DNA of 64,000 bases from a virus, in the IMG/VR virus record IMGVR_UViG_3300047472_000281, positions 6,334 to 70,333 of that record. One strand, given 5' to 3'. The translations under genes were made by a program, and so were the position numbers. Positions 1-54,510 of the stretch are shown piece by piece. The notes beneath the pieces were generated by a model. That model saw only the letters and a list, made by a program, of their open reading frames with translations, searched no databases and was not told where the DNA came from. The stretch's first letter is position 1. Each line of letters starts with the position of its first letter.

Positions 1-10
1 GGTCCCCGCG

Positions 11-1498
11 ATGGACCTGGGCCACGGGCGTGGCCGCACCGAGGACGACGGCTCGCGGCACGATAACGCGCCCAAGGTCCAGCCCCACAACATGGAAGCC
101 GAGCAGGCTCTGCTGGGCGTGCTGCTGTACGACAACGGCGCCTATGAGCGCCTGATCGGCGTCCAGGACGGCCACTTCTACGAGCCGTTCCACAACCGGC
201 TGTTCGCGGCCATTGAGACGAAGGTCCGCAAGGGGCAACTGGCCGAGCCGATCCTGCTGGCCGACGAGTTCGCCAAGGACCCGGCGTTCATCGAGCTTGG
301 CGGCCTGCGCTATCTGGCCGATCTCGTCGACAGGGCGCCGCCGGCGATCAACATCGCCGACTATGGCCGAGCGATCTATGACCTGGCCTGTCGCCGGGCG
401 CTGATCCTGCTGGCCGGCGAGATCGAGGCCGAGGCCCGCGGCGACGTCCCCCTGATTCTGCCGGCCCGCGACCAGATCGAACTGGCTGAGAAGAAGCTAT
501 TCTCGCTGGCCAAGACCGGCGACACCCAGGGCGGGCCGCAGTCGTTCGCGCACTATCTGACTGGCGCGGTGGTGATGGCCGCCGAGGCGTACAGCCGCCC
601 AGGTGGAATATCTGGCCTCGCGACCGAACTGATCGATCTCGACGACAAGCTGGGCGGGCTGCGGCCCACCGACCTGATCGTCATCGCCGGCCGCCCGTCG
701 ATGGGCAAGACCGCCCTGGCGACCAACATCGCCTTCAACATCGCCCGTCGCTACGCATACGAAGTCCAGCCAGACGGATCACACAAGACCGTCTCGGGTG
801 GACGGGTGCTGTTCGACTCTCTGGAGATGAGCGGCGAGCAGTTGGCGCTGCGCATTCTCGCCGAAGCCTCCGAGATCTCGTCGCACAAGATCGCCAAGGG
901 AGAGATCCAGGCCCACGAGTTTGGCCGCATCCGCGACGCGGCCACCGAACTGAATGAGATCCCGCTCTACATCGACGCCACCGGCGGCATCTCGCTGGCC
1001 AAACTGGTCGCCCGCGCGCGTCGTCAGAAGCGCCTGACCGGCCTGGATTTGGTGGTGGTCGACTATCTGCAACTGATCGACGCCGGGATCATCGGCGACT
1101 CGAACCGCGTCGTTCAGATCACTATGATCACCATGGCGCTGAAGGCCCTGGCCAAGGAACTGGAGTGCCCGGTGATCGCGCTGTCGCAGCTGTCGCGGCA
1201 GGTCGAGCAGCGCGAGGACAAACGGCCACAGCTTTCGGACCTGCGCGAGTCTGGCTCGATCGAGCAGGACGCCGACCAGGTGTGGTTCGTCTATCGCGAG
1301 CAATACTACCGCGAACGCGCCGAGCCGCGCGAAGGCACCCCCGAACACATCGAATGGCAGGTCGCCATGGAGGCCTGCGAAGGTCTGGCCGACTGCATCA
1401 TCGCCAAGCAGCGCCACGGCCCCATCGGCACCGTGCGCCTCGCCTTCAACCCCGACCTCGCCAAGTTTTCCAACCTTTCCCGGGATCGACGCCCGTAA
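11..1498 (+). CDS. dnaB: Replicative DNA helicase (DnaB family); true start may lie elsewhere
   Basis: PHNxEAEQALLG N-domain, Walker A GRPSMGKT, VVDYLQL, LSQLSR, DLRESGSIEQDAD, KQRHGP motifs. Confidence 0.96.
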   Translation: MDLGHGRGRTEDDGSRHDNAPKVQPHNMEAEQALLGVLLYDNGAYERLIGVQDGHFYEPFHNRLFAAIETKVRKGQLAEPILLADEFAKDPAFIELGGLRYLADLVDRAPPAINIADYGRAIYDLACRRALILLAGEIEAEARGDVPLILPARDQIELAEKKLFSLAKTGDTQGGPQSFAHYLTGAVVMAAEAYSRPGGISGLATELIDLDDKLGGLRPTDLIVIAGRPSMGKTALATNIAFNIARRYAYEVQPDGSHKTVSGGRVLFDSLEMSGEQLALRILAEASEISSHKIAKGEIQAHEFGRIRDAATELNEIPLYIDATGGISLAKLVARARRQKRLTGLDLVVVDYLQLIDAGIIGDSNRVVQITMITMALKALAKELECPVIALSQLSRQVEQREDKRPQLSDLRESGSIEQDADQVWFVYREQYYRERAEPREGTPEHIEWQVAMEACEGLADCIIAKQRHGPIGTVRLAFNPDLAKFSNLSRDRRP

Positions 1499-1509
1499 CG
1501 GGGATTTGC

Positions 1510-2781
1510 ATGACAGACGCCCAGATTCTTCCAGACCCCCTGACGCCGCCCGGCTGCAACCTCAAAAGCATGCCGTCGATGCTGCTCGACGTTCAGCGCC
1601 TGTGCGACAGCGGGATCGCCAGCCACGAGAACGCCGAGGTGTTCCGCACCGCCATGCTGCTGTGGTGCAAGTCGTGGCATCAGATCCCGGCCGCCTCGCT
1701 GGATGACAAGGATTCCGAACTTGCCGGTCTGGCGGGGTTCGGCCGGGGCTCGCTCGACAAATGGATGGCGATCCGCGCGGACGTCCTGCGCAGCTTCGTC
1801 AAGTGCTCCGACGGCCGCCTCTATCACCCCGTCGTCGCCGAGAAGGCCCTGGAGCAGTGGATCAACAACCTGATGCGCAAGGTGTCGGGCGCCAAGGGAA
1901 ACGGCGCCCAGGGCAAGGCCGGAGCGAACGCCTCCGAGGCCCATATGGAAGCGCTGGGCGACGCCGCCTATCGCCTGCGCCGGCTGAACCCTTTGTCGGA
2001 CACCTTCAAGAAGGACGCTGTGAAGGTCGCCCTGGCGCTGTTCGACGAAAGCCCGCTTCGACCCGATCCGGACGCCGCGCGATTGGACCGCGAACGCATT
2101 GCGTCAGGCATGGTCGCGCACGGCGAACGCACTGCGTCACGCAGTGCGTCAGATATCGAGACGCAGCGCGTACCAACTGGGTCACGCAGTGCCGACGCAC
2201 CGCGAACGCAAGATAAAGGGAATAGAAATATATCCCCCCAACCCCCCTTGGAGGGGGGCGTTCGCGATGCGTTGTTCGACAAGATTTTCGCGGCCTATCC
2301 CGAGACGGGGAGGGCGTCGACCGATCAGCTGAAGGCCCTGAAGGCCCTGCCGGCGATCGTCGAGGAGATCGGCGCCGATGCGCTGCTGGGCTGCGTGGCC
2401 AAGCTGGCCGCGTCGGACTATGCCCGCCAGGACGGCGGCAAGAAGGTTTCCAGCCTGCACCGCTGGCTGACCGGCGGGAAGTGGCGAAACTGGTTGACGA
2501 CCGAGGCGGCACAGGCTTCGGCGCCGACCTGGGCCGGTCCTGCCGAAATCCGCGAAGCGATGATCGCCTACGTCGCCGACGCCAGGGGGGGCCGCGCCAA
2601 GGCCGAGGAATGGGCCGCCAGTTGGCTGGATAGCGTCACCACATGGTCGGAGGTGCCCAAGGCGATCGTCTGCCGGTCCGGGACGGTCCTGAAGCGGTTG
2701 CAGGAGGCGGTCGGGGCGATGCTGCGCACCGAATACGGCGTGCAGCTGCGCTTGGCCGTGGCCAGTGAGGTGGCGGCATGA
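1510..2781 (+). CDS. Phage replication initiator (DUF1376/YdaU-like N-terminus)
   Basis: ATG at 1510 within ORF 1165..2781; LLWCKSWHQIPAASL and DGRLYHPVVAEKA motifs; low-complexity linker containing DNA repeats; adjacent to DnaB. Confidence 0.75.
   Translation: MTDAQILPDPLTPPGCNLKSMPSMLLDVQRLCDSGIASHENAEVFRTAMLLWCKSWHQIPAASLDDKDSELAGLAGFGRGSLDKWMAIRADVLRSFVKCSDGRLYHPVVAEKALEQWINNLMRKVSGAKGNGAQGKAGANASEAHMEALGDAAYRLRRLNPLSDTFKKDAVKVALALFDESPLRPDPDAARLDRERIASGMVAHGERTASRSASDIETQRVPTGSRSADAPRTQDKGNRNISPQPPLEGGVRDALFDKIFAAYPETGRASTDQLKALKALPAIVEEIGADALLGCVAKLAASDYARQDGGKKVSSLHRWLTGGKWRNWLTTEAAQASAPTWAGPAEIREAMIAYVADARGGRAKAEEWAASWLDSVTTWSEVPKAIVCRSGTVLKRLQEAVGAMLRTEYGVQLRLAVASEVAA
2090..2233. 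repeat. Candidate replication origin: iteron-like repeats plus A/T-rich tract inside initiator gene
   Basis: GCGAACGCA at 2090, 2123, 2202; GTCACGCAGTGC at 2136, 2181; followed by AGATAAAGGGAATAGAAATATAT. Confidence 0.6.
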
Positions 2782-3101
2782 TCCCGCTGGACCAAGCCAT
2801 CGTGCTGGGGGCGTGTGTCGGCGCCGCCTGCCTGATGGGATACGCTCGAGGATCGCAAATTAAGGTGCGACCGCGTCCGCTCGTACTTCTGGTGAGGCGG
2901 CCTTGGCCAAAGCCGTTCAGTCGTCGCGCGGATGAATACTGGGTCCGTCTTCCGTTTGCCGGCGTTGAGGCCTTCACGGTCTGGAAGGGCGAGGATCCTG
3001 CCCCCGACGGTGGTTTCCACCGCAGCTGGAAAGCGGCCAGCGATCGCATCGCCGAAATTCAGGCGGCCGAGAGGGCCGCCGGTGGCGAGGCGTCAGCATG
3101 A
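2778..3101 (+). CDS. Hypothetical protein with N-terminal hydrophobic segment
   Basis: ATGA overlaps with both neighbours. Confidence 0.65.
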   Translation: MIPLDQAIVLGACVGAACLMGYARGSQIKVRPRPLVLLVRRPWPKPFSRRADEYWVRLPFAGVEAFTVWKGEDPAPDGGFHRSWKAASDRIAEIQAAERAAGGEASA

Positions 3102-3334
3102 CCCCCGAACTCAGCATGGCGATCAAGTTCGTCGAGAACGCGGGCTATCGGGTTCTTAAGCCGAAGCGCGCCGGCCTGCCGCCAGAGGCCATCAAAGCGG
3201 TTCTGCAGGCGCGACGAAACGATGATCCGTTCATCCGCATCGCTCGGCGACTGGGCCTGACAAAGGGCCAAGTGGCGGGCGTGACGACGCGCTATCGCCT
3301 CAACGACCTAGGTGTTGTGGAGCGACGCCGATGA
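3098..3334 (+). CDS. Small HTH protein resembling the GcrA N-terminal DNA-binding domain
   Basis: IARRLGLTKGQVAGVTTRYRL resembles GcrA-type IAxxLGxxxxxVxGxxxRL; translationally coupled. Confidence 0.5.
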   Translation: MTPELSMAIKFVENAGYRVLKPKRAGLPPEAIKAVLQARRNDDPFIRIARRLGLTKGQVAGVTTRYRLNDLGVVERRR

Positions 3335-4302
3335 CCGCTCAAGCATTCGGCGAGGCCCATCGGATTTACACGGATGGACCCCGGACCGGCTTCTACCGGG
3401 CCGACAGCACCCCGTGGGCGCCGGGGATCTACGACGCCCTGTCGGAACAAAGCCCATGGCGTGAAGTCTATGTGGTCAAGGGCGCTCAGCTCGGGCTGAC
3501 AGAGATCGGCATGATCTGGATCGGAGACGGCGCTGTCCAAGGCCTGCCTGGTCTCGTAATCGAGCCCACCGAGCGACATGCGCACCAGATCGCCAGCCGG
3601 AGGTGGACGGGCTTCGTCAACACCGCGCAGCCGCTTCGAGACCTGTTCGGCGGTGGTCAGCGCCAGTCGGCCCTGCAGTTCACATCGGACACGACGGACG
3701 TCACCTTCGCGGGATCAGGTAGCCCCGCCAGCTTTGTCTCTGCCGTCCCAGCCCGCGTGCTCGTCGACGACTACGATCGGTGTTCGCGCTTAAAGGGGGA
3801 GGGTGGCTTACTGCCCCTGATGCGCGACAAGATCGACGTCTGGGGAGAGCGCGGCAAGCTGTTCATTCCCAGCACGCCGGCCTGGGCCAACGATGGCATC
3901 TGGCCGGAATGGTTGCGGACCGATCAGCGGCTGTTCGAATGCCCGTGCCCGCTCTGTGGCCATCGCCAGCCTTGGGTCTGGGAAGACCTGCGCTGGAACC
4001 CCGGCCAACCCGAAACCGTCCATCTGACCTGCCGATCCTGTCGCGCGGGGCAGGTCGAATGGGCCTGGAAGTCTAAGTGGCGCGCCGGGCAATGGCGCGC
4101 GACAGCGGCCGTCTCTGATCCAAAGCGGGTCGGTTTCCACCTGTCGACCCTGTACGCGGCGCCGGGGACCCAGCCGTGGGAGCGCATTGCGAGGTTCTAC
4201 GAAGAGGCGCGGGACAGCCGCGATCCCCTGAAACTTCAGGTGTTCATCAACAGCGCCATGGCCTTGCCGGATGCGCATACGAAGATCGGTGGCGCGCTGT
4301 GA
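3331..4302 (+). CDS. Truncated GpA-type terminase large subunit paralog (ATPase and Zn module only)
   Basis: TPW, KGAQLGLTE, GKLFIPSTP, FECPCPLCGHRQ, GFHLSTLYA, QVFIN align with the N-terminal half of 8384..10372; ends before the nuclease domain. Confidence 0.85.
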   Translation: MTAQAFGEAHRIYTDGPRTGFYRADSTPWAPGIYDALSEQSPWREVYVVKGAQLGLTEIGMIWIGDGAVQGLPGLVIEPTERHAHQIASRRWTGFVNTAQPLRDLFGGGQRQSALQFTSDTTDVTFAGSGSPASFVSAVPARVLVDDYDRCSRLKGEGGLLPLMRDKIDVWGERGKLFIPSTPAWANDGIWPEWLRTDQRLFECPCPLCGHRQPWVWEDLRWNPGQPETVHLTCRSCRAGQVEWAWKSKWRAGQWRATAAVSDPKRVGFHLSTLYAAPGTQPWERIARFYEEARDSRDPLKLQVFINSAMALPDAHTKIGGAL

Positions 4303-4952
4303 GCGGTTCGGACGCCGAAGAGCGGGTGAGGGCGGTCGCGGTTGCCGCGTTGCGCCTCGAGATGCCGACGGCGCGGATCATCCATGAACTGGATGTCGGC
4401 GGCGCCCGTCTGGACCTGGCCGCGATCGAGACCGACCGCATCGTGCTGGTCGAGATCAAGAGCGAGCGGGACGTTCTGACCCGTCTGGCCGGCCAGCTGC
4501 GGTTCGCGCTGTCGGTCACCGACGACGTGCGGGTGGTCTGCACCCCGCGCCACCAGGCCAAGATCACGGCGGCGCGTGTGCCCTACATCCACGAGGGGCC
4601 AGATCGCGGCGCGAACGCCCTGCACATCAAGGGCCTTCAGCACTGCAGCCTGCATGTCGAGAGCCCCGCGGGCCTAGTCAAGGCCTGGGCCAACCACCCC
4701 CTCTACAACAAGAACTGGAACCGCGAACGCATCCGCGCCGAGCACGTCATGGACCTGATGCTGCAGTCCGAGGCCAAGGAAGCGCTTCGGCCGCTCGGCG
4801 CCAAGTCCCGGTGGATCCAGAGGGAGGTTACGGCCTTCGCGATGGAGCACCTGTCCGGCGCCCAGATCCGGCGAATGACCTGCGCGGCGCTGCGGGCCCG
4901 ACACTTCGCCCGGGCTGATGCCCCCATTCAAGCCGAGAGGATCGCGGCATGA
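4299..4952 (+). CDS. PD-(D/E)XK-like nuclease-fold protein (sce7726-like)
   Basis: HELDVGGARLDLAAI...VEIKSERDxLxRLxxQ motif; GTG start overlaps upstream stop. Confidence 0.7.
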   Translation: MSGSDAEERVRAVAVAALRLEMPTARIIHELDVGGARLDLAAIETDRIVLVEIKSERDVLTRLAGQLRFALSVTDDVRVVCTPRHQAKITAARVPYIHEGPDRGANALHIKGLQHCSLHVESPAGLVKAWANHPLYNKNWNRERIRAEHVMDLMLQSEAKEALRPLGAKSRWIQREVTAFAMEHLSGAQIRRMTCAALRARHFARADAPIQAERIAA

Positions 4953-5203
4953 GCCGGAAGTTTCGACCTGGCCGCCTTTTGCTGGCCGGCTGTCTGGCGG
5001 CGCCATTGTGCTTTGGCTTCTCCACCCTCGTCGTCGATGCGAACCAGAGATCCTTCGAGCGGGGGCAGTTGGTCGGCCAATGCCAGGTGGTCGTGAACCT
5101 CGTCGCCGCGAAGAAGCGCGCGGACCCCAGTTGGAGCCCGCCTCCGGGTGATCTGATGCAGAGGTGCAGAATTGCGCTCGCAAACGTTAGGGAGGGGAGC
5201 TGA
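4949..5203 (+). CDS. Hypothetical membrane/secreted protein
   Basis: Coupled ORF with hydrophobic N-terminus. Confidence 0.55.
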   Translation: MSRKFRPGRLLLAGCLAAPLCFGFSTLVVDANQRSFERGQLVGQCQVVVNLVAAKKRADPSWSPPPGDLMQRCRIALANVREGS

Positions 5204-5448
5204 TGGCAACGATCACATGGCGAGTCGAGGACTTTCGCACAGGCAAGGTCCGCGACGGCGAAAGCGCTGATGTCGGCGCCGCCCAGAAAGCCGCCTTGGC
5301 GGTGGTGCGTGACCTGGGGCGCAAGGATCTGGCCGGCATCAAGGCGACGGTCGTCCGACGACCCCGGAGTGCGCCGCCGAAGATCATGAACGCCAAGCTG
5401 GGCGAGCGCGGTCAGATCGAGTGGGTTGAGGCGGCGCTGGATGCTTAA
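5203..5448 (+). CDS. Hypothetical protein
   Basis: GGAGG SD and TGATG coupling. Confidence 0.65.
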   Translation: MATITWRVEDFRTGKVRDGESADVGAAQKAALAVVRDLGRKDLAGIKATVVRRPRSAPPKIMNAKLGERGQIEWVEAALDA

Positions 5449-5761
5449 GGACCAAACCCCTGACGATTGGCATCCGTGCGTCGTCCTGGACTGCCGCCGC
5501 ACGGGCAAGGTGCTCAAGGCGGGCCGGAAGTTCGTCTGTCACATCCACGTCGGCAAGGTCGGGGAGAAGCTGATCCGTGACCACACCCGGCACGCGGCGG
5601 ACCTGATCGACGCCCAGCGCCGCGCCGCGCTCAAGCCGGCGGCGAGTGACCGACCGGTGGTTGCCGCCAGCTTCGCGGAGGGCATGGCCTGGAACCGCAT
5701 CGTGCTGCGGGCCGGTGAATTGTTCGGCGTAAAGCCAGAGTTCGGGGGAGAAGCGTCGTGA
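5441..5761 (+). CDS. Hypothetical protein
   Basis: ATG at 5441 overlaps previous ORF end; coupled to next gene. Confidence 0.6.
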   Translation: MLKDQTPDDWHPCVVLDCRRTGKVLKAGRKFVCHIHVGKVGEKLIRDHTRHAADLIDAQRRAALKPAASDRPVVAASFAEGMAWNRIVLRAGELFGVKPEFGGEAS

Positions 5762-6666
5762 CGAGGAAGACCGCCAGGAAAGGCCTGTTCAAGCCCGGCT
5801 TCGCCGGCGCCAAGGACGAGAGCCTGGGCATGCCTGGCCGCGGCCAAGCCATCCCGGATGAGGGCGCGTTCGATGCGCTGGAGCAGCGCATCCACCGGGC
5901 CATGCTGACCTTGACCCGGATGTCGGGCGACGGCCCGTCCTCGCGCACCGGCTTCTGGCCCGACTATGTCGTCGAACTGGCCGACCGCATCGAGCGCGAG
6001 AAGGAAGAGGCCGCGCCGCCGCGTCGCTTCCGCCCGACCGGAACCGACGTCGACGACCTTTTGCCGGCGCTGGAGCTGCTGCAGGGCCTGCGCGTCGAGT
6101 ATTTCCAGCTGGTGCGCTACAAGGCCGTCGACGATTTCCGCCTCGACGGCGGCGCAACATGGGTCGACCTGGGCGACAGCTTCGGGCGCAGCGACTATTG
6201 GGCGCGCGAGAGCTATCGCCGCGCCATGCTGCAGGCGGCCAAGCGCGCCGGTCTGGTGTTCTCGGCGCCGACTGAATACGCGGTGGTCTGGGTGACCGTC
6301 ATGTACGACGGCCTGCTGATGACCTGGATCGGCACGTCCAGCAATCCGCGCCAGACCCTCTATGACAAGAAGGCCCACAACCCTGCCGAGATCGTCGATT
6401 GCTCGGCGGTGTGGGTGGCCGACAAGGCCACGGCGAAGGTCGTCCTGGACCAGACGCGGGCGCACCACACAGCCGATCGCAAGCACGGCGGCTGGCACAT
6501 CCTGAACCCCTTCGACGCCGAGGCGACGATCATGGACAAGGTCGAGGGGCTGAAGGCGACCTGGCGCATGGAATACTTGGCCGGCGAGCCGATCGAGGCG
6601 CCGGTGCGCCAGACGATCGAAGACGTGGCCGAGGCGGCCATGATGAGCATGGAAGGGGACGTTTGA
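5758..6666 (+). CDS. Putative late-gene regulator (DUF6362-like) fused to degenerate GIY-YIG/T5orf172-like domain
   Basis: WPDY...RFRPTxxDVD...W..LG.SFGRS HTH-like N-half; WIGTSSNPRQTL...NP...GGWH C-half; lies upstream of packaging genes. Confidence 0.5.
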   Translation: MTRKTARKGLFKPGFAGAKDESLGMPGRGQAIPDEGAFDALEQRIHRAMLTLTRMSGDGPSSRTGFWPDYVVELADRIEREKEEAAPPRRFRPTGTDVDDLLPALELLQGLRVEYFQLVRYKAVDDFRLDGGATWVDLGDSFGRSDYWARESYRRAMLQAAKRAGLVFSAPTEYAVVWVTVMYDGLLMTWIGTSSNPRQTLYDKKAHNPAEIVDCSAVWVADKATAKVVLDQTRAHHTADRKHGGWHILNPFDAEATIMDKVEGLKATWRMEYLAGEPIEAPVRQTIEDVAEAAMMSMEGDV

Positions 6667-6980
6667 TGGCCATCCGCGAGCAAGAGACCGGCGCGCTCAT
6701 CGAGTTCCTCAACGGGCTGTTGGAGGTCGATCGCCGGGCGATCACTCGCCTTGTCGCGACGCGCGTCCTTTGCGGGTCAGCTCTCGGCGAGCACCCGACC
6801 GTGCAGGTCGGCGTCCTGAAAGGTGTTGGGTTGGAAGTGGGCATGCTCGGCGTGCTGAACGGCTTCTGCGGTGTGTTTGACGAAGGCCCCAAGAAAGGCT
6901 GGGGCCCGATCATGGCGATCTACGACGGCGACCAGATCGCCCGTTTCCGCCGCACCGACGAGAAGGCCATCGACGCATGA
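6666..6980 (+). CDS. Hypothetical phage protein
   Basis: ATG at 6666 coupled to upstream TGA; LxEHPTVQV...VGMLGVLNG. Confidence 0.65.
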   Translation: MAIREQETGALIEFLNGLLEVDRRAITRLVATRVLCGSALGEHPTVQVGVLKGVGLEVGMLGVLNGFCGVFDEGPKKGWGPIMAIYDGDQIARFRRTDEKAIDA

Positions 6981-7354
6981 CCGTCGCCAAGACCGACGTG
7001 ACGCTGCTCGACGATGAGATATTCGGCCGCGCCTGGTACTACGAGAAGCTGGTGATCGACCCGCCGGTTTTCGAAGGCAAGGTTCTGCCCGTGCGCTCCG
7101 AGGACGGGCGGGTCATTGGCGCCGCCAGCTTGCACGCGGCCGCTGATCGGGTGAGCGCCGATGTCGAGATCACGGATCCCCTAGCAGGTGAGTTCTTCCG
7201 AGACGCCCTGGCCGGACCTTTTGCGGTCTACAAGGTCGGACGGTGGGAGGCGACAGATCAGATAGGCGCCAATGGACTACCCGTTTGGCTCGCCTGCGAT
7301 ATCGATTTGGTCAGCGTGACCCTCATGCCGATCGCGAAGGAGCCAAAGTCATGA
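6977..7354 (+). CDS. Hypothetical protein
   Basis: ATGA-coupled ORF. Confidence 0.6.
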   Translation: MTVAKTDVTLLDDEIFGRAWYYEKLVIDPPVFEGKVLPVRSEDGRVIGAASLHAAADRVSADVEITDPLAGEFFRDALAGPFAVYKVGRWEATDQIGANGLPVWLACDIDLVSVTLMPIAKEPKS

Positions 7355-7557
7355 GGTGGGAAAAGCGGCAGACCGGCGACTGGCGGCTGTTCGACGCCGA
7401 GGGCGAGATCGCGGGGGCGGTGGTCTGGCAGGATTTGGGACAGGGCCGGGTGTGGAACAGCGTCTCAGCGCGGCTTGCCCATGGTCCAGAAGAGGGCAAG
7501 CTAACCGAGTGCAAGCGTCGGCTGGAGCGCCTGTGGGACGAGGCCGGGAAGGCCTGA
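7351..7557 (+). CDS. Hypothetical protein
   Basis: AAGGAG SD, ATGA overlap. Confidence 0.55.
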   Translation: MRWEKRQTGDWRLFDAEGEIAGAVVWQDLGQGRVWNSVSARLAHGPEEGKLTECKRRLERLWDEAGKA

Positions 7558-7569
7558 ACGACGTGCCCG

Positions 7570-7645
7570 TGAAAAAAGTCAAATCTAGCAGATTGACCAA
7601 ACCCCGGTTTTGGGCGAATCAACGCCTAGCCGGGGCGAATCACGT
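7570..7645 (+). promoter_or_regulatory. Candidate late promoter/cos region with two GGGCGAATCA direct repeats
   Basis: A/T-richer intergenic gap before small terminase; TTGACC at 7593; repeats at 7612 and 7633. Confidence 0.45.
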
Positions 7646-7677
7646 TCCGCCGAAGTCGACGACACGGACGGCCTGAA

Positions 7678-8436
7678 ATGGCCACGCGGAAGTCGGCGAA
7701 AAGCTCAAAGAAAACCAAGGCTTCCAAGCTTCCTCATGCGGGAGGCGACCTTGTCACGGCCGCCGAGTACGCGCGCCGGGTCGGGATCTCGCCCCCGCGC
7801 ATGACGAAGTTCTTTCACGAGGGCATGCCCTTCGTGAACGGCAAGGACGCCGAGGGCCGGCGCGACTGCAAATTGGTCGATGTCCATGCCGCCGATCTGT
7901 GGCGGATGGCCAATACCGACATCCGCATCGATGCGGATGGGCGTTTGCGTGGACTGGAGTCGGGCGCTCGCGCGCCGGCTCCGGTTCCCGCGGGGGCGCT
8001 GGCTGGGACGGGCGTCCCCTCGCCAGCGGCCGAGCAGGCGACTCCCTCCCCCGTCTCCGGGGAGTCGCCTGCATCACCTAAGCCGCCCGCCGAGGAACTG
8101 ACCGGCTCGCAGCTGGCGGCGGCGCGGATCGCCGAGGCCAAGGCCGCCGGCGTCGAGGCCGACACCGACTACAAAAGGCAGCGGCTCGCCGCAGCCCAAG
8201 GGCTGCTGGTCGACCGCAAAGCGGCGATCGGAGCCCACCAGGCCTTCGTCCAGAAGGTCGGGGTCTCGATCGACCGCATGCCACAGAATTACGCCTCCAA
8301 GATCGCGGCGCGACTTGGGGTCTCGGAACACGAGGCCTTCAAGGCGCTCAAGGAAGTCGTCGCCCAGCAGATGAGAGAAGATCTTGCCCGCGACGCTCGC
8401 AGCCACGCCGACGCCGCCAGGCGGCGAGGGGGATAA
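7678..8436 (+). CDS. Terminase small subunit (Nu1-like)
   Basis: N-terminal HTH (AAEYARRVGIS), coiled coil then GLLVDR motif; directly upstream of GpA. Confidence 0.8.
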   Translation: MATRKSAKSSKKTKASKLPHAGGDLVTAAEYARRVGISPPRMTKFFHEGMPFVNGKDAEGRRDCKLVDVHAADLWRMANTDIRIDADGRLRGLESGARAPAPVPAGALAGTGVPSPAAEQATPSPVSGESPASPKPPAEELTGSQLAAARIAEAKAAGVEADTDYKRQRLAAAQGLLVDRKAAIGAHQAFVQKVGVSIDRMPQNYASKIAARLGVSEHEAFKALKEVVAQQMREDLARDARSHADAARRRGG

Positions 8437-10372
8437 CGACAACTGGCCATACCTGCTCGGCGGGGCTGAACTTCTAGACGCCGAAGCGGCGATGATGGCG
8501 CCGCAGAAGCGGCTGACACCTCTGGAGTTCGGCGACGAGCACCGGACGTACACCAAGGAAGGCCGCGCCTCGCGCTGGCGCTCCGAGGATACGCCCTGGG
8601 CCCGCGAGATCCTGGAGACCCTGGACGAGGACAGCCCGTTTCGGCGGGTGGTGGCGCCCAAGGGCACCCAACTGGGCTTTACCGAGCTTGGCCTGATCTG
8701 GGCCGGGCAGGGGATCATGCAGAGCCAGTCTCTGCTGATGATCCTGCCCAGCGAGGCGGTCGCCAAGCGGATCGTCAAGACCAAGTTCAAGCCGATGCTC
8801 AAGACCACGTCGGTCTTGGCCAACGCCTTTCCGGGGCGGTCGGTCGACACGGCGCTGCACTTCAGCAATGACGCCGTCGACCTGATGTTCGGGGGCTCCA
8901 ACAGCCCCAACAACTTCGCCTCGCTGACCGTCCAGCGGTTCATGGGCGACGAGGTCGATCGCTGGTCGCCGGAGCTGCTGAAGGAAGGCGACCCGGTCGA
9001 CCTGGCCGAGAACCGGATCGCCGAGTACGGCTTTCTGGGGAAGATGTTCCTGCCGTCGTCGCCGACGGTCGAGGGCGCGTCGATCGTCTGGCGCGAGTGG
9101 GAACAGTCCGACAAGCGGGTGTTCGAATGCCCCTGCCCGGGCTGCGGCCACAAGCAGCAGTGGCTCTGGGAAAACATCAAGTGGGAGCCGGGCGACACCG
9201 ACAACGTCACGCTGAAGTGCGTGGCCTGCGAAGAGAAGTTCCCGGAGGTCGACTGGAAGACCATCTGGAACGACGGGACGTGGCGCGCCACTGAGCCTAA
9301 CCCGGTCCGCCGGGACACGGCGGGCTTCCACCTGTCGACCCTGTATGCGCGGCTTGGCCAGCGCACCTGGGCCCAGCTGGCCCAGCAGTACGAGGCGGTC
9401 ATCAAGTCGGGCCTGTCGGCTCGGATGCAGGTGTTCGTCAACACCATCCTGGGCCTGCCCTGGAAGATCACCGAGGACGCGGTCGCGGTCGACGCGCTGC
9501 GCGAACGCCTCGACGACAGCCTGGAAAAGGGCGTCGTCCCCGCCGGCGCCCTGCTGCTGACAGCGGGCGTCGACTACCAGAAGAACCGCCTGGAAGTGTT
9601 CATCTTCGGCTGGGCGCGGGCTCGCGAGAGATGGCTGGTCGACAAGGTGGTCGTGCCGCGTCTGACGCTGGACGGAAAGATGCGTCCCGCCAAGGCGATA
9701 GCCGACGATCTAAAGGCCATGGCCCTGGAAAAGGATTGGCCGCACGAACTGGGCGGCACGCTGCAGGTCGAGATGGCCTTGCACGACGCCGGCGACCGAC
9801 CTTCGGACGTGTTCGATGTCCTGGAGCACCTGCGGCCAGACCGGAACGTGGCCTCGAAGGGCTTCGAGGGTTGGGGCCGGCAGATCCACTTCTCGGCGCC
9901 GAAGATCATCGACGTCCATCGCGACGGCAAGGTGGTCAAGTCCGGTCGCCTGCAGATGAGCATCTACACGGCCGAGGCCAAGCGGGCTTGGTACGACGAC
10001 CTTCGCCGGGCGCCTTCCGAGGACGGCGGCGCGTCGGAGCGCTACGTCCACCTGCCGATGTGGATCGACGAGGAAGAGGGCCTGCTGGCCGGCTTCGTCT
10101 CCGAGGAGATCCGCAAGTCCACGCGCGGCAAGATCCGCTGGGAAAAGATCGTCGAGCGCAACGAGCCGCTGGACTGCGCGATCATGGGCGAAGGCGCCCG
10201 GTGGCAACTGAAGTCGCACCGCTGGAACGAGGCCGACTGGCTACGCCGCGAGGCGATGGTCAACACGAACCCCGTCGCCGCGCCACCTGACCGGCCAGAC
10301 GATGACGAACCGCCGCCGACGTCGGGCGGGTTCGTTCGAGCAGAAAAGAATTGGTTCAACCGCAACCGTTAA
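8384..10372 (+). CDS. Terminase large subunit, GpA family (start uncertain)
   Basis: KGTQLGFTE Walker A, GDEVDR Walker B, SSPT, CPCPGCG, LTAGVDYQ and RNEPLDC nuclease motifs. Confidence 0.95.
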   Translation: MPATLAATPTPPGGEGDNDNWPYLLGGAELLDAEAAMMAPQKRLTPLEFGDEHRTYTKEGRASRWRSEDTPWAREILETLDEDSPFRRVVAPKGTQLGFTELGLIWAGQGIMQSQSLLMILPSEAVAKRIVKTKFKPMLKTTSVLANAFPGRSVDTALHFSNDAVDLMFGGSNSPNNFASLTVQRFMGDEVDRWSPELLKEGDPVDLAENRIAEYGFLGKMFLPSSPTVEGASIVWREWEQSDKRVFECPCPGCGHKQQWLWENIKWEPGDTDNVTLKCVACEEKFPEVDWKTIWNDGTWRATEPNPVRRDTAGFHLSTLYARLGQRTWAQLAQQYEAVIKSGLSARMQVFVNTILGLPWKITEDAVAVDALRERLDDSLEKGVVPAGALLLTAGVDYQKNRLEVFIFGWARARERWLVDKVVVPRLTLDGKMRPAKAIADDLKAMALEKDWPHELGGTLQVEMALHDAGDRPSDVFDVLEHLRPDRNVASKGFEGWGRQIHFSAPKIIDVHRDGKVVKSGRLQMSIYTAEAKRAWYDDLRRAPSEDGGASERYVHLPMWIDEEEGLLAGFVSEEIRKSTRGKIRWEKIVERNEPLDCAIMGEGARWQLKSHRWNEADWLRREAMVNTNPVAAPPDRPDDDEPPPTSGGFVRAEKNWFNRNR

Positions 10373-10403
10373 AGCGCCGCCGGCGCCGAGGAGACATGAC
10401 GAC

Positions 10404-10619
10404 ATGGCCGCTCTGACGATCGAGCAGCAGATCGCCCACCTCGTCAAAATGGCGGGGACCGGCGTCCTGGAGTCGGAGCAGGCCGACGGAAAGCGCGTGA
10501 AGTTCGCCGACATCACCGAGTTGAAGGCCCGCATCGCGTTCCTGCGATCGGAACTGACCAGCCCGCCCGGAACGGTGCGCGTCACGCGCACGACCTTCGC
10601 TAACTTCCGTCAAGACTGA
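10404..10619 (+). CDS. Head-tail joining protein (gpW-like)
   Basis: Small ORF between terminase and portal; DGKRVKFADITELKARI. Confidence 0.8.
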   Translation: MAALTIEQQIAHLVKMAGTGVLESEQADGKRVKFADITELKARIAFLRSELTSPPGTVRVTRTTFANFRQD

Positions 10620-12328
10620 TGGCCGGCTTCATGGAGCGGGCGGTGGACGGCGTGATCGCCGTCTTCGCGCCCAAGGCCGCGCTCATGCGGCGCGGCGCCC
10701 GCAATGCTCTGTCGGTTCAGAACGACGGCCAGGCGCTGCTGGCGGCCATGCGGATGGAGTCGCGCAAGTACGCGGCCGCCTCGCGCGACCGGTTCACGGG
10801 CGGCTGGCGCGCCAATGGTTCGTCCGGCAACGCCAACCTGCAGCCCGACCTGGCGCTGATCCGCGCCCGCACGCGGGGGATGGAGCGGGACAACCCGTAC
10901 ATCACCGCCGCGACCCGCAACCTGACGGTCGACCTGACGGGCCTGGACATGCGGGCCACGCACGAAAACCCCCGTCTGGCGAAGAAGGCCCAGCAGGCGT
11001 GGAACCGCTTCAAGAAGAAGACGAAGTTCCACATCCGCCAGAAGGTGGTGGTCCGCGAGACGATCACCGGCGGCGAGGCTCTGATCGTCTGGCGGCCCAA
11101 GGGCAACCTGCCCAACCAGCGCATGCAGGTGCTTGCCGGCGATCACCTGGACACCAGCAAGACCGAGATCCTCGCCAACGGCAACAGGATCGTCATGGGG
11201 GTCGAGTTCGACTCCGAAGATGGCGATCCGGTCGCCTACTGGATCTTCCCCGAGCACCCCGGCGATCTGGTGACCCGGAAGATAGCCTGGGTCTCGGAGC
11301 GCATTGACGCCCGCTATGTCGACCACGTGTTCGAAGAGTTGTGGCCGCAGCAGGCGCGCGGCGTGCCGTGGTTCTACGGCTCGGTCCTGACCTTCGACGA
11401 GATCGCGCAGCTGGAAACGGCGATGCAGGTCAAGAAGCGGGTCGAGGCCTGCGTGACCGTGTTCCGCACGCCTGGCACCGATCCCAACGCCGGATCCGAC
11501 GACCCGATCGGAGCGCGCAAGCGCGAAGCCGACGGCCGCATGCTCGAGGAAGTCGCGCCGGGCATGATCCTGCACGGCAACGTCGGCGACAAGTTTGAGA
11601 TCGTGAACCCGTCCAGCAACGGCGACGGCGGCGACTTCCTGCGCGCCCAGCTGATGAAGGGCTGCGCCGGCATCGGCGTGCCCTACCACATGGTCACGGG
11701 CGATGTGACGAAGGCGAACTTCTCCAGCCTGCGCGCCGACCTGATCCCCTATCGGGCCCGCCGCGAGGACTGGGCCTATACGGTGTTCACGCCCAAGGGC
11801 ATCGAACCCGCCTTCCGACGCTGCATGGAACTGGAAGCGGCCATCACCGGCGACCAGCGCTATCTGGACGTGATCGGCGAGGAAAGCCTGCCGCCGATGG
11901 AGTGGATTGATCCGCTCAAGGACATCATGGCGCTGAAGGAAAAGCTGCGGATCTTCCCCGGCATGCTGCCCGAGACGTTGGCCAAGCTCGGCCTGGACTG
12001 GCGCGTGCAGGTCGACACCCAGTCGGAGGTCGACCAGTACGTCGACCTGAAGAACGTCACCTATGACGCCGATGCGCGTCGCGTGAACGGCGCGGGCGCG
12101 CTGCAGACCGTCAAGGCCGGCGAAACGCCGACCGACGCCGGCGCCCAGGCCCAGGCGGCGATCAATGAGCGCACGACTGAGTTCGCGCTGCGGATCTGGG
12201 ACGCCCTGGATGAGCGCGACGGCGCATCACTGAATCTCGCCTTCGCCGAGGCCGCCCAGGCGGTTCGGTCGGGAGACCCCGCCGCCGCCGGCATGCACGC
12301 CGTGCTGATGGCCCTTACTGAACGCTGA
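10619..12328 (+). CDS. Portal protein, lambda family
   Basis: GVEFD...PVAYWI, QxRGVPW, GVPYHMVTGDVTKANFSSLRA, WIDPLKD. Confidence 0.95.
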   Translation: MAGFMERAVDGVIAVFAPKAALMRRGARNALSVQNDGQALLAAMRMESRKYAAASRDRFTGGWRANGSSGNANLQPDLALIRARTRGMERDNPYITAATRNLTVDLTGLDMRATHENPRLAKKAQQAWNRFKKKTKFHIRQKVVVRETITGGEALIVWRPKGNLPNQRMQVLAGDHLDTSKTEILANGNRIVMGVEFDSEDGDPVAYWIFPEHPGDLVTRKIAWVSERIDARYVDHVFEELWPQQARGVPWFYGSVLTFDEIAQLETAMQVKKRVEACVTVFRTPGTDPNAGSDDPIGARKREADGRMLEEVAPGMILHGNVGDKFEIVNPSSNGDGGDFLRAQLMKGCAGIGVPYHMVTGDVTKANFSSLRADLIPYRARREDWAYTVFTPKGIEPAFRRCMELEAAITGDQRYLDVIGEESLPPMEWIDPLKDIMALKEKLRIFPGMLPETLAKLGLDWRVQVDTQSEVDQYVDLKNVTYDADARRVNGAGALQTVKAGETPTDAGAQAQAAINERTTEFALRIWDALDERDGASLNLAFAEAAQAVRSGDPAAAGMHAVLMALTER

Positions 12329-12336
12329 GAGGCCCC

Positions 12337-14493
12337 ATGAAAAAGACCCTGATGGTCGGCGCCGCGCTCGCGGCGGCGCTGCTGACGCGTGAGTCGCCGC
12401 CGCCCGGCGTGACCCACGAACGCGGAACGCCGCCGCCCTCGCGCGGCGAGCGCTTCATGGCGTTCACCGGCAGTTCGTACGATCCGGCGACCCGCGAGTG
12501 CGACGCCACCTTCGCCACCGGCGAGGTGGTGTCGCGCTGGTATGGCACGGAGCAGCTGCAGATCGATACCGCGTCGATCATTCTGCGTCGGGTGGCGCTC
12601 AACCAGTGCCGCCTGCTGTTCGGCCACGACAGCCGCCAGCCGATCGGCTTGGTGATCTCGGCCGAGGTCGTCAATGGCCAGTTGGTCGGCCGCGTCCGCT
12701 TCGCCGAGACGCCGCAGGGCGACCTTTATGCTGGCATGGTCCAGCGCGGCGAGCTGACCGGAATCTCGGTCGGCTACAACGTCTTGCAGTGGACGCTCGT
12801 CAGCGAAGTCGACGCCGACTCCGACGCGTGGACCGCCACCCGATGGGAGCTGATGGAAGTCAGCCTCGTAACCGTTCCCGCCGACCCTTTTGCCGGGGTC
12901 AGGTCGGCGGAGCCTGCCCCAGCTAGCCCGCCTGTCGCCGATCCCGGCGCTGGCCAACGTTCTGAAGAGGAAAAAGACATGCTGACCATTGCTCAGGTGC
13001 TGGCTCTGCGCGCTCAAGCGCGTGCGCTGGGCGTCACCGCCGAGGCCGCCGAGGCGGTTCTGACCCGCGAGGGCATCACCCACGCCCAAGCCCTGGAAGA
13101 AATCATGGGCCTGGCGACGGCCGCCCGCGCCGCCGCCACCGCCGCGCCGGCTGTGGTCGCCGCCGCTCCTGCCCCCGCGCCGACCCCCGCCCTCGCTGGC
13201 GGCCTGAGCACCGCCGACGCTCTGAACCTGCGCAGCCAAGCCGTGGGCTATGGCATCGCCGAGGATACTGTCGACGCGATCCTCAGCCGCCAAAACATCA
13301 CCCGCCCCGAAGCGTCCGAGGCCATTCTGACCGCGGCGGCTTCGGCTCAGCGCGCCGCTGTCGCCCCGGTTCCGGCCGGCGGCGCCGCGCGCGTCACGGT
13401 CGACGAACGCGAGGTGCAGGCGGCCCGTATGACAGAGGCGCTGGCCGCCCGGATGGGCAACCGCGCGCCGGACTCCAGCGGCCGCGAGTTCATGGGCTGG
13501 AGCGTTCTGCATATGTGGGCCGAGCGCGCCGGCATCGACGCCCGCGACCCGGTCCGCATCTACGACACCATCGCCCGCAACTTCGGTCCGAGCATGTCTG
13601 TTCGCAGCGGCGCCATGATGACCACGGCGGACTTCCCGCTGATCCTGGAAGGCGCCGCCAACCAGACCCTGATGGCCGCCTACAATCTGCAGCAGCCCAG
13701 CTATCGCAACTGGGCCGCCAAGAAGCAGTTCCAGGACTTCAGGCCGCACCACTTCTATCGCATCGGCGACTTCCCCGAACTGCTGCCGTTGGGCGAGGGC
13801 GGCGAGATCAAGGCCGGCTCTTTCAAGGAAAGCAAGGAAAGCGCCGAGCTGGGCACCAGCGCGCGCCTGGTCATGATGACCCGGCCGATGCTGATCAACG
13901 ACAACCTCAACGCCTTCGGCGACTTCGCCGGCGGCGCGGGTCGTTCGGCCGCGCGTCGGGAAAACCTTCTGGCCTATACCTCGATCCTTTCGAACGCGGG
14001 CCTTGGCCCGACGATGTCGGACGGCAAGACCATGTTCCACGCCGACCATGGCAACCTGGCCGCCTCCGGCACCGCCATCACCGAGGACAGCCTGTCGGCC
14101 GCCCGCGAGGCCGGCTACGTCCAGAAGGATCTCGACGGTCACGAGCTGAACATCGACTTCCCGATCCTGCTGCTCGGTCCGAAGAAGCTGACCGAAGCCG
14201 AGAAGCTGCTGATCGAGGTCCAGCCGACCAAGACCGCCGACGCTCAGATCTTCGCCGGCAAGCGCCGCCCGGTCGCCGACGCGAAGATCAAGGACAAGGC
14301 CTGGTGGAACCTGGGCGACCCCGCCAACGGCGAGTCGAACTTCGTGTTCGGTTATCTCCGTGACCAGGAAGCTCCCGAGCTGCGCCAGGACAAGCCGTTC
14401 AACTATGACGGCATCGGCTTTGGCGTGATCCACGACTTCGGGTTCGGCGCCAACGAGTATCGCTTCGGCTACAAGAACGCCGGCGACAACTAA
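12337..14493 (+). CDS. Prohead protease-scaffold-major capsid fusion protein
   Basis: LLFGHD, ISVGY, WELMEVSLVTVPAD protease; duplicated helical linker; TTADFPLIL, DFRP, LINDNL capsid motifs. Confidence 0.93.
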   Translation: MKKTLMVGAALAAALLTRESPPPGVTHERGTPPPSRGERFMAFTGSSYDPATRECDATFATGEVVSRWYGTEQLQIDTASIILRRVALNQCRLLFGHDSRQPIGLVISAEVVNGQLVGRVRFAETPQGDLYAGMVQRGELTGISVGYNVLQWTLVSEVDADSDAWTATRWELMEVSLVTVPADPFAGVRSAEPAPASPPVADPGAGQRSEEEKDMLTIAQVLALRAQARALGVTAEAAEAVLTREGITHAQALEEIMGLATAARAAATAAPAVVAAAPAPAPTPALAGGLSTADALNLRSQAVGYGIAEDTVDAILSRQNITRPEASEAILTAAASAQRAAVAPVPAGGAARVTVDEREVQAARMTEALAARMGNRAPDSSGREFMGWSVLHMWAERAGIDARDPVRIYDTIARNFGPSMSVRSGAMMTTADFPLILEGAANQTLMAAYNLQQPSYRNWAAKKQFQDFRPHHFYRIGDFPELLPLGEGGEIKAGSFKESKESAELGTSARLVMMTRPMLINDNLNAFGDFAGGAGRSAARRENLLAYTSILSNAGLGPTMSDGKTMFHADHGNLAASGTAITEDSLSAAREAGYVQKDLDGHELNIDFPILLLGPKKLTEAEKLLIEVQPTKTADAQIFAGKRRPVADAKIKDKAWWNLGDPANGESNFVFGYLRDQEAPELRQDKPFNYDGIGFGVIHDFGFGANEYRFGYKNAGDN

Positions 14494-34987: not shown

Positions 34988-35671
34988 ATGACCAGTCGGC
35001 CCAGCATCGCCTTGGCTCTGACCCTGCCGATTTTGGCAGGATGCGGCCTGCTGGTCGGATACAAGGCTTACCCTCTTCGCCATCCGGCTAACACGCATGC
35101 GGTCAGGGATAGAGCCATCGCCTCCCAGGCGGCTCAACTCGGCCACGTGGACACGCTTCTCGTCGGCGACAGTATTGTTGAGCTGTCCTACATCCCAGAG
35201 CTTTGCGGAACCGTGCTCAACGCGGGTGTCGGAGGTTCTGGGATTGCGGAGTTAGAGGCCGAGCTACCGGTTCTACAACGAGAACTGAAGCCTAAGCTCA
35301 TCGTGATCGCTACTGGCGTGAACGAAGGGGCGAGGGCGAAGAAGGTAGATGTAGCCGATTTCCGAGGGCGTTACGTGGGTCTGATCAGACTCGCTAAAGC
35401 ATCGGGTGCGAGAGTTGCGGTGGCCAACGTGCCTCCGGTTTCGGACGTCGGCCCCTTGGGCGTGAAGAATTTCGATCCCGCTGTTTTGCGGGCGCTCAGC
35501 TCGGCCGTCGACTCGTCTGCCGCGCAAGAGAACGTAAAGCTGTTGGACGTGCGCGCGGCCCTCGAAGGCCCCGATGGGGCGTTGAGGCCCGATGACACCG
35601 AAGATGGCGTGCATTTGCGGCCAAGCGGCTACGGCCGCTGGCGCCCGGTCATCATGACCGCCTGCAAGTAG
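34988..35671 (+). CDS. SGNH/GDSL hydrolase with N-terminal membrane anchor
   Basis: VGDSI, NAGVGG, GVNE, DGVHL blocks. Confidence 0.88.
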   Translation: MTSRPSIALALTLPILAGCGLLVGYKAYPLRHPANTHAVRDRAIASQAAQLGHVDTLLVGDSIVELSYIPELCGTVLNAGVGGSGIAELEAELPVLQRELKPKLIVIATGVNEGARAKKVDVADFRGRYVGLIRLAKASGARVAVANVPPVSDVGPLGVKNFDPAVLRALSSAVDSSAAQENVKLLDVRAALEGPDGALRPDDTEDGVHLRPSGYGRWRPVIMTACK

Positions 35672-44844: not shown

Positions 44845-44899
44845 AGGGTCGTTCCTTGCTGGCCCGCGCCACATGCGCGGGCTGATTGATCTGGTGGGT

Positions 44900-45133
44900 C
44901 TACTGGCAGGCGACGTCGATGCTGGAGCGCAGCTCTTCGAAGTGGCCGGGCAGATCGTCCTGCAGGGTGGTGATCGCGTCCTGCATCTTGATTCCGCTGT
45001 CGGCGCCCTGAAGGCTCTCAGGGAGGTTTTCGAACGCGGCCTGTTCAGCGGCGAGCACCTCTTCGACAAGGGTCTCGGCCTGATTGATCAGCTCGGCGGC
45101 TTGCTGGAGCATCTTGCGGCGGTCGTTGTTCAT
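44900..45133 (-). CDS. Small acidic helical phage protein
   Basis: MNNDRRK...EQAAFENLPESLQ; ATG 45133 after repeat SD. Confidence 0.75.
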   Translation of the reverse strand: MNNDRRKMLQQAAELINQAETLVEEVLAAEQAAFENLPESLQGADSGIKMQDAITTLQDDLPGHFEELRSSIDVACQ

Positions 45134-54025: not shown

Positions 54026-54510
54026 GACGTCACCTCCGGCGCCTTCAGGCGGATGTGATTGCCGTCGTTTTCGATCAGGAAGAGCGTGCGCAGGCCCTCG
54101 GCCTGTTCGGTTAGCAGACGCTGCATCTCGGACTCGCTTTCGATCTCCGAAATGCAGGAGATGACCTCGGAGATCGCGCGGCAGACCAAGAAGCGCCTGC
54201 CCGCGCGGCGGCGCCGCATCGCGCGGTCGCTCTCAAGGGCCTGTTCCCCTGCCGATTTGGGGTATGGGCCCCATAGGCCGTTCCCCTTCAGGTGATCCTG
54301 AAGGTCTTGGCAAAGGGCGTGGAACTGCGAACGGCCCAGCAGTGCTTCTAGGTCATCGCAGACCTTATCGTACCAGGGCTGGCGTTCAGCCGACCGACCG
54401 AGGCTGAACAGCCTCAGTCCCCAAGCCAGCTGATAAACCGGTGTCGCCGGCGCGCCGTAGCGGATCGCTGCGGCCATGACCGGGTGGCTGGTGCTATCGC
54501 GCGAGATCAT
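54022..54510 (-). CDS. Hypothetical protein
   Basis: GGAGG SD, ATG 54510, ATGA overlaps. Confidence 0.55.
   Translation of the reverse strand: MISRDSTSHPVMAAAIRYGAPATPVYQLAWGLRLFSLGRSAERQPWYDKVCDDLEALLGRSQFHALCQDLQDHLKGNGLWGPYPKSAGEQALESDRAMRRRRAGRRFLVCRAISEVISCISEIESESEMQRLLTEQAEGLRTLFLIENDGNHIRLKAPEVTS

Follow-up and report, generated by a model that had tools for sequence, protein, structure and literature searches.

A stand-alone GpA-type terminase ATPase domain with an altered Walker B motif in an early-gene module of a temperate lambda-like phage

We analyzed a 64,000-nucleotide stretch of viral DNA (hereafter, the window) that spans bases 6334-70333 of the IMG/VR record IMGVR_UViG_3300047472_000281, a genome of 70,333 bases that has direct terminal repeats and is rated complete. 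The temperate, lambda-like siphovirus represented by this record encodes two GpA-like proteins, one of which is its full-length large terminase subunit (TerL) and the other a short homolog that we denote terLN. The terLN gene (3331..4302 of the window, plus strand; 323 amino acids) encodes exactly one complete ATPase-plus-lid unit, namely, a stand-alone GpA-type terminase ATPase core with its zinc ribbon and lid, and differs from nearly all full-length homologs in two residues of the catalytic region, including the catalytic glutamate. We favor, with a rough probability of 0.45, the interpretation that terLN is a functional accessory protein that acts by binding, that is, a captured ATPase domain with attenuated hydrolysis. 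The possibility that the gene is a young recombination relic is a serious one and is weighed below along with two further explanations.

The terLN gene and its predicted product

Residues 1-313 of terLN align with residues 44-359 of the TerL of the same phage, with 130 of 318 positions identical (41%; BLASTP E-value 2e-80) and 7 gap positions. The Pfam profile GpA_ATPase (PF05876) is matched from position 4 to the last of its 247 positions (E-value 1.2e-34; 120.5 bits against a cut-off of 25.6), and phrog_15 is matched at 4e-51. Of the GpA_nuclease profile (PF20454), only positions 2-48 of 294 are covered, and the columns with the invariant aspartates of the nuclease (D397, D468 and D597 of the phage's own TerL) are missing. 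Also missing are the 43-residue N-terminal extension of the own TerL and its C-terminal part, the alignment ending at residue 359 of 662. In lambda, the N-terminal extension and the C-terminal tail of TerL bind the small subunit and the prohead. Because terLN has neither the nuclease, nor the C-terminal part, nor the N-terminal extension, it cannot be a terminase. The collinearity with the N-terminal half of TerL had been recognized in a preliminary description of this locus made from the sequence alone, which also stated that the gene stops at the domain boundary, and the present comparison bears out both points: terLN starts two residues ahead of the first conserved motif, and the homology with TerL ends at residue 313, the end of the lid, to be followed only by a short tail (residues 314-323). 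The lid helices (residues 283-313; 4177..4269, plus strand) align with residues 327-364 of lambda gpA, the very range given for the lambda lid subdomain in Table 1 of PMC6379665.

The reading frame of terLN is intact and appears to be translationally coupled on both sides, as described previously: it overlaps the upstream gene by ATGA (3331-3334) and the downstream gene by GTGA (4299-4302), and GGAG lies 8 nucleotides upstream of its ATG. The genes from the replication gene through p84, the open reading frame (ORF) at 4949, are all joined by start/stop overlaps of the same kind. There are no terminator-like sites on the plus strand within positions 1-8500, and the sites found in a promoter and terminator scan were no more numerous than in shuffled sequences. 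Neither side of the gene shows traces of other terminase parts: the in-frame translation upstream, inspected by eye, contains no terminase-like sequence, and downstream, the next gene, pdexk, begins 30 nucleotides past the end of the homology. A fusion of terLN to pdexk by programmed -1 frameshifting was considered and dismissed, as no heptamer of the form X XXY YYZ occurs in 4100-4302. Likewise, a match of terLN to a CNF1-family model of NCBIfam is due to chance (E-value 0.033; 12 bits, where the cut-off is 950). PADLOC yielded no match for terLN, for the two genes that precede it in the module described below (p107 and hth78), or for p84.

All the motifs of a terminase ATPase can be traced in terLN. 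The Walker A motif KGAQLGLTE (residues 50-58; 3478..3504, plus strand) corresponds to KGTQLGFTE in the own TerL, with K50 aligned with K76 of lambda, and K50 through T57, as well as the Walker B aspartate D146, occupy conserved or invariant columns. The S-T-P coupling motif (S181, T182, P183) is preserved, and so is the zinc-ribbon insert (3946..4041, plus strand), whose four cysteines (C206, C209, C234 and C237) all fall in invariant columns, in agreement with the earlier statement that Walker A and the zinc cysteines are kept. As a separate observation on Walker A, the position of the lambda 'arginine toggle' (R79) is occupied by glutamine in this GpA subfamily (Q53 in terLN; Q96 in the own TerL, 8669-8695), with glutamine accounting for at least 90% of the column in a 64-row alignment; arginine at position 3 or 4 of Walker A is described as nearly universal among terminases (PMC6379665).

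The Walker B segment of terLN reads VLVDDYDR (residues 143-150; 3757..3780, plus strand), and that of the own TerL FMGDEVDR. Thus, the replacement of GDEVDR by VDDYDR, with aspartate in place of the catalytic glutamate, stands as originally reported: D147 (GAC, 3769-3771, plus strand) aligns with E179 of lambda gpA, in a column that contains glutamate in 95% of 134 full-length GpA-type TerL sequences. The second altered residue is K167 (AAG, 3829..3831, plus strand), located between Walker B and the S-T-P motif, which takes the place of a near-invariant arginine (R211 of the own TerL and R200 of lambda, the latter by count on the lambda gpA alignment). Arginine is present at this position in 96% of the 134 sequences, in all 80 TerL sequences from viral contigs and in all 19 short GpA-like matches discussed below. 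Across the columns that are at least 80% conserved among the 134 full-length terminases, terLN deviates at 19 and the own TerL at 17, with 14 deviations common to both, so that five changes are unique to terLN: E147D, R167K, P160L, S189G and L310M. Both E147D and R167K preserve the charge. The counterpart of the former in lambda, E179D, leaves weak ATPase activity, slows the motor about 8-fold and is lethal for packaging; it also impairs folding and the assembly of protomers and tetramers (PMC6379665). The literature searched contained nothing on lambda R200. The active site of terLN would be tuned down such that ATP might still be bound, with its hydrolysis slow or nil.

An AlphaFold2 model of terLN built from the 64-row alignment is of high confidence (pLDDT 94.0, pTM 0.92) and is ordered up to about residue 313, with the lid helices 283-296 and 299-310 modeled at pLDDT above 95 and residues 317-323 below 50; the predicted order thus ends where the sequence homology does. 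The best Foldseek matches of the model are the ATPase domains of P74-26 TerL (4znk, E-value 2.7e-7) and T4 gp17 (2o0j, 7.5e-7). The model also resembles the Avs3-bound terminase of PhiV-1 (8dgc_E, 5.3e-4), as would any TerL ATPase domain. A sequence search of the PDB retrieved no GpA-type structure.

Ancestry of terLN and the module that carries it

In a maximum-likelihood tree of 32 N-domains, from which sequences shorter than 560 amino acids were left out, terLN is the sister (SH-aLRT 99) of a clade of six TerL sequences that consists of the own TerL, those of the two closest relatives of the phage and three metagenomic proteins. This position shows that terLN is of foreign origin, from a lineage sister to the clade of the own TerL. 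The terminal branch of terLN amounts to 0.93 changes per column, compared to 0.57-0.78 from the same node to the sister tips, that is, it is 1.2-1.6 times longer. Against a profile of 130 outgroup N-domains, terLN scores 239.4 bits and the six full-length sisters 241.9-288.7 bits; the consensus of the 130 outgroup TerLs is matched by terLN at 103 of 302 columns and by three sisters at 117-120. The deficit resides mostly in the columns of 60-80% conservation (27 of 73 matched by terLN, compared to 36-41 of 73), with three additional columns of the top class. Given that the branch length, the profile score and the consensus matches are all close to those of the sisters, nearly all of the evolution of terLN has taken place under the constraints that apply to a genuine terminase ATPase domain. 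These comparisons support the argument, made in the preliminary description, against simple decay, at least in the form of long neutral drift. The base composition of the gene, with GC contents of 0.64, 0.54 and 0.78 at the first, second and third codon positions, respectively, retains the periodicity typical of coding sequence.

The DNA stretch previously reported to be common to terLN and the own TerL is real: the 20-mer TTCCACCTGTCGACCCTGTA is present in exactly two copies, starting at 4135 and 9326, where none is expected. This sequence encodes the conserved FHLSTLY motif in a genome that is rich in GC at third codon positions, and the identity of third positions across the alignment of the two genes is low (0.47), with the same codon used at 72 of the 131 identical residues; the shared 20-mer therefore provides no evidence of recent exchange. 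At the DNA level, the two genes look like old relatives rather than recent copies.

The gene is part of a three-gene swap-in module, p107-hth78-terLN, that occupies a variable slot following the replication gene, within the string of early genes to which terLN had already been assigned and which comprises a DnaB helicase (11..1498), a replication protein (ending at 2781) and then the module. The closest match of the DnaB gene comes from a Caulobacter phage, which is no more than a hint as to the host. In a contig of a related phage, the module (2716..4292) is replaced by 436 other letters that join 2715 to 4293, so that this variant retains pdexk and lacks p107, hth78 and terLN. A second related contig has a larger replacement, in which 2709 is joined to 5256 (with 2710-5255 missing) through 168 other letters, and in a third one, homology again begins at 4293, which is thus a breakpoint in two runs. 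In the closest relative of the phage (TerL 92% and DnaB 78% identical), the replication gene leads straight to a homolog of the ORF at 5203, with about 40 base pairs in place of 2781-5197, and in the next closest relative (TerL 77% identical), terLN is missing and the PD-(D/E)xK-like gene lies upstream of dnaB. Further hot spots of replacement in contigs of related phages are located at 4955-5200, which is exchanged for 238 other letters, and in the region 6620-7370, where 6620-7368 gives way to 370 letters or is skipped as a block.

The first gene of the module, p107 (2778..3101, plus strand), is a 107-amino-acid orphan ORF whose start codon lies in an ATGA shared with the stop of the replication gene (2778-2781). 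Its N-terminus appears hydrophobic by eye, and it has no match in Pfam, PHROGs, NCBIfam or PADLOC and no relative in viral contigs. The second gene, hth78 (3098..3334, plus strand; ATGA overlap at 3098), encodes a 78-amino-acid helix-turn-helix (HTH) protein with weak matches only (HTH_28 at E-value 0.072, the 'HTH DNA binding protein' family phrog_7061 at 0.0019, and HTH_23-like Atlas leads below 0.9), and it likewise lacks relatives in viral contigs. A role of hth78 as a small terminase subunit was rejected because the protein has no similarity to that of the phage and yields only the sub-threshold HTH leads. Prediction of a complex between terLN and hth78 gave a score of 0.00 (mark 0.32), which speaks neither for nor against an interaction. 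Downstream, pdexk (4299..4952, plus strand), whose GTG start overlaps the stop of terLN, encodes a 217-amino-acid PD-(D/E)xK-like protein that matches phrog_984 (3.6e-17), sce7726_fam (1.6e-16, although below the cut-off of that model) and the PADLOC candidate model PDLC02989 (3.1e-11), and in which a D...ExK signature can be read by eye. None of the 19 viral loci with relatives of pdexk has an adjoining terminase-like gene; pdexk is thus a separate mobile gene and not a conserved partner of terLN. Its position differs among related phages: behind the replication gene in the present phage, upstream of dnaB in the second closest relative and elsewhere at other loci.

The genuine packaging module is located at 7678..12328, so that terLN lies 3.4 kb upstream of it, among the early genes, and adjoins neither the small terminase subunit (TerS) nor the portal. 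This module consists of TerS (7678..8436, plus strand; phrog_57 at 1.6e-14), the own TerL (8384..10372, plus strand), a full-length GpA-type enzyme with both ATPase and nuclease, and, behind it, a lambda-family portal (10619..12328). The packaging and structural genes also include a tail tube protein, a tape measure protein and a GpJ-like tip protein. At 12337-14493, a single 718-amino-acid ORF combines a Peptidase_S78 prohead serine protease with a Phage_capsid_4 major capsid protein, a protease-capsid fusion, and a GDSL-type esterase is encoded behind the tail genes (34988-35671, plus strand). The other arm carries, on the opposite (minus) strand, accessory genes for a PAPS-reductase-like protein (43663-45069), a DUF5131 protein (54507-55571; 1e-86) and a 678-amino-acid protein with a C-5 cytosine methylase domain (59626-61662), as well as the tyrosine integrase (49977-51110). 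The GC content is 61-71% all along the window.

Possible roles of terLN

Under the reading that we favor, terLN would be a genuine accessory gene that is translated and that reproduces, with domain precision, the ATPase half of a GpA-type TerL; it would have arrived together with the two small orphan genes as a swap-in module. Continued selection is suggested by the combination of neat cuts at both ends, coupling, an intact frame, near-normal conservation and charge-preserving changes. Also in favor of this reading, the phage recurs in a second study, one run of which matches it at 99% or better and covers bases 3879-4029 of terLN with one mismatch. Because terLN cannot package DNA but could still bind ATP and the contacts of TerL ATPase domains, action by occupancy, rather than as a motor, is favored. 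The mechanism that we tentatively favor is competition for the contacts between a TerL ATPase domain and DNA or other TerL subunits, by which terLN would hinder or delay terminase assembly, most plausibly in a related phage that co-infects or resides in the same cell. Such interference would fit a gene that was captured from a related lineage and is carried in a variable slot; even so, we give packaging interference specifically a low probability.

Several observations weigh against a functional accessory protein, among them the lack of relatives. An exhaustive HMMER search of 1.84 billion representative proteins retrieved 3,990 relatives, the best of which, other than terLN itself, is 40% identical and full-length. 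In a word-indexed protein search, the matches of near length consisted of terLN itself and two weak short hits, and the best longer match was 44% identical. Overall, no homolog with more than 44% identity and no family of short proteins were found in any collection searched. Scans for sequence patterns in viral, metagenome and genome contigs produced no usable relative either, the sole row being a 48-residue match in a Bryobacteraceae metagenome-assembled genome (E-value 3e-4). The whole records of the two closest phages contain only the full-length TerL, and the related contigs that bridge the site lack terLN as well; since the two nearest phages do not have the gene, there is no evidence that its function is conserved. 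The GC content at third codon positions (0.78) is below that of the core genes (0.86-0.91), though similar to that of other small accessory genes (0.69-0.79). The comparison with the own TerL (dN 0.60, dS 1.02 by NG86) is saturated and hence uninformative, and no RNA data set is listed as containing this stretch. Moreover, two of the most conserved residues of the catalytic region are changed, as release from selection would also bring about, and, given the folding and assembly defects of lambda E179D, the DD site could be no more than a sign of damage to the protein.

The short GpA-like proteins that the searches did yield do not form a family with terLN. Of the isolated-phage records with a GpA-like match, 190 of 191 have a single such place and one has two. 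The 19 matches shorter than 560 amino acids that we inspected look like fragments, several of them with tails that, by our own reading, are out of frame. Their Walker B motif contains D-E in 16 cases within the printed segment and in two more within the sequence itself; the remaining one reads D-D. This protein (377 amino acids, 28% identical to terLN) ends about 30 residues past the lid with a tail that is apparently out of frame, and its nearest relatives in viral contigs share only 48% identity with it and have E-E at this site, so that it does not define a DD family. The rows that seemed to read 'DA' or 'DG' among the short matches and the viral-contig TerLs are shifts in the alignment of LDEVDAY-type motifs (checked for two rows and assumed for four loci). 

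Under the main competing explanation, terLN is a young recombination relic, a foreign terminase gene's 5' half left behind by illegitimate or module-swap recombination, with no function and bound to decay or be lost. The singleton status of terLN in every collection searched, its absence from the nearest relatives and from the slot-bridging contigs, the location in a block-exchange slot with a breakpoint at 4293 in two runs, and the alteration of both the catalytic glutamate and a near-invariant arginine fit the relic reading equally well. The modestly lower consensus match in the 60-80% columns and the reduced GC content at third positions point in the same direction, and the neat cut itself may be a survivor effect if badly cut fragments misfold and are purged. 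The lack of relatives, however, is no guide in choosing between the two readings, given that under either of them the source lineage has yet to be sampled. What speaks against a relic is the shape of the gene: its two ends fall on structural boundaries and each takes part in a coupling overlap, the frame has neither stops nor frameshifts and, in the alignment, just the 7 gap positions among 318 residues, conservation is near normal, and no other part of the terminase is left upstream or downstream. In addition, both changes in the catalytic region are the most conservative ones possible. If the three unique changes at columns conserved at 90% or more (about one in ten of these columns) were neutral, a similar share of changes would be implied everywhere, so that, by a rough estimate, 969 bases should have accumulated several indels or a stop. 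On balance, we consider a relic to be a substantial possibility.

Variable phage slots of this kind often hold anti-defense genes, and the location of the terLN module in such a slot is compatible with an anti-defense protein directed against terminase-sensing immunity (Avs1-3, Upx), in which a non-productive mimic would bind or titrate the sensor. Avs1-4 sense the folds of the large terminase and the portal (PMC13581612), the terLN model resembles the Avs3-bound terminase, as noted above, and such a role for terminase-ATPase-like proteins, for example, vs.8 of phage T4, is raised as a possibility by the authors of PMC13601566. The same source, however, reports that the ATPase domains of five terminases suffice, in isolation, for strong activation of EcAvs2, that terminase ATPase domains alone activate Upx as well, and that vs.8 is toxic in combination with EcAvs2. 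A further ATPase domain, if produced early, would thus more probably serve as a trigger than as a shield, which weakens the proposal of the preliminary description that terLN is a decoy for terminase-sensing immunity. The two other suggestions made there, a dominant-negative packaging inhibitor and a repurposed ATPase, may still apply. PADLOC, as noted, has no entry that matches terLN. The literature searched contains no account of a terminase decoy or of a dominant-negative terminase ATPase domain, the matches to 'decoy' being to its use in mass spectrometry. We regard an anti-defense role as improbable. The same applies to the idea that terLN and pdexk jointly form a two-gene machine for replication or recombination, terminase-like or helicase-nuclease-like, in which a nuclease of the PD-(D/E)xK fold replaces the lost RNase H-like one. 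The two genes are coupled by the GTGA overlap and both lie among replication genes, and the D...ExK signature and the sce7726-like and phrog_984 matches of pdexk also speak for it. Nevertheless, the pairing is unique, with no terminase-like neighbor at the 19 viral loci of pdexk or in the second closest relative; the breakpoint at 4293 parts the two genes; pdexk is placed elsewhere in relatives, such as upstream of dnaB; and the attenuated active site seems ill-suited to a motor, so that we assign very little weight to this scenario.

Comparison with known terminases and terminase-related proteins

The closest known homologs of terLN are the GpA-type TerLs, typified by lambda gpA and combining PF05876 with PF20454. 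Across the ATPase half, terLN is 41% identical to the own TerL and 20% to lambda gpA, and shares with these enzymes the Walker A motif, the Walker B aspartate, the S-T-P motif, the four-cysteine insert and the lid. It differs from them in lacking the nuclease, the N-terminal 43 residues and the C-terminal part, in the replacement of Glu by Asp and Arg by Lys, and in its location away from TerS and the portal. In its predicted fold and extent, terLN also matches, over about 200-317 alignment columns, the ATPase-domain constructs of other TerLs, such as P74-26 TerL 1-256 (4znk and others) and the N-domain of T4 gp17 (2o0j). These constructs, however, are laboratory truncations of full-length enzymes and are only 14-15% identical to terLN; the similarity to T4 gp17 is confined to the fold (14% identity to 2o0j). 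To our knowledge, the crystallized ATPase-domain constructs do not contain a zinc-ribbon insert of the GpA kind.

A functional analogy, although not a homology, may be drawn with Gpi, a protein of the PLE satellite that binds and inhibits the large terminase of ICP1 (PMC11417361). Here, a conflict between mobile elements involves inhibition of the large terminase, a role of the kind that we propose for terLN. Unlike terLN, Gpi is encoded by a satellite, and the abstract gives no sign that it derives from a terminase.

The significance of terLN depends on which of the two principal readings is correct. If it is a relic, it provides a tidy example of how module exchange behind replication genes deposits gene fragments of the size of a domain, and is of little further interest. 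If functional, terLN would join T4 vs.8 as a second, independent example of a stand-alone terminase ATPase domain kept by a phage, and would be the first such domain with a deliberately attenuated active site. It would then be a natural reagent for studying the role of such proteins, be it packaging interference between phages, control of timing or interplay with Avs2 and Upx, and for determining whether catalytically slow subunits poison terminase motors. In the most far-reaching version, which we consider unlikely, the motor half of a rival phage's packaging enzyme was turned into a weapon or a shield: an ATP-binding, slowly hydrolyzing domain made early would poison the oligomeric motor of related phages or satellites, or manipulate the Avs2 and Upx sensors, and would represent an independently evolved, GpA-type counterpart of T4 vs.8. 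The present weight of terLN is modest because the gene is known from only one phage lineage.

The nearest precedent for a second, nuclease-less terminase ATPase is T4 vs.8, a stand-alone homolog of the T4 terminase's ATPase domain, the role of which is given as unknown in PMC13601566. Both vs.8 and terLN are phage-encoded second terminase ATPase domains without a nuclease that coexist with a full TerL. They differ in that vs.8 is of the gp17 type, retains its Walker motifs and, according to the same source, is spread over a phage taxon for which a phylogeny was built, whereas terLN is of the GpA type, is a singleton and has an altered catalytic residue. Thus, terLN is a GpA-type, catalytically attenuated variant of a kind of protein already noticed in T4.

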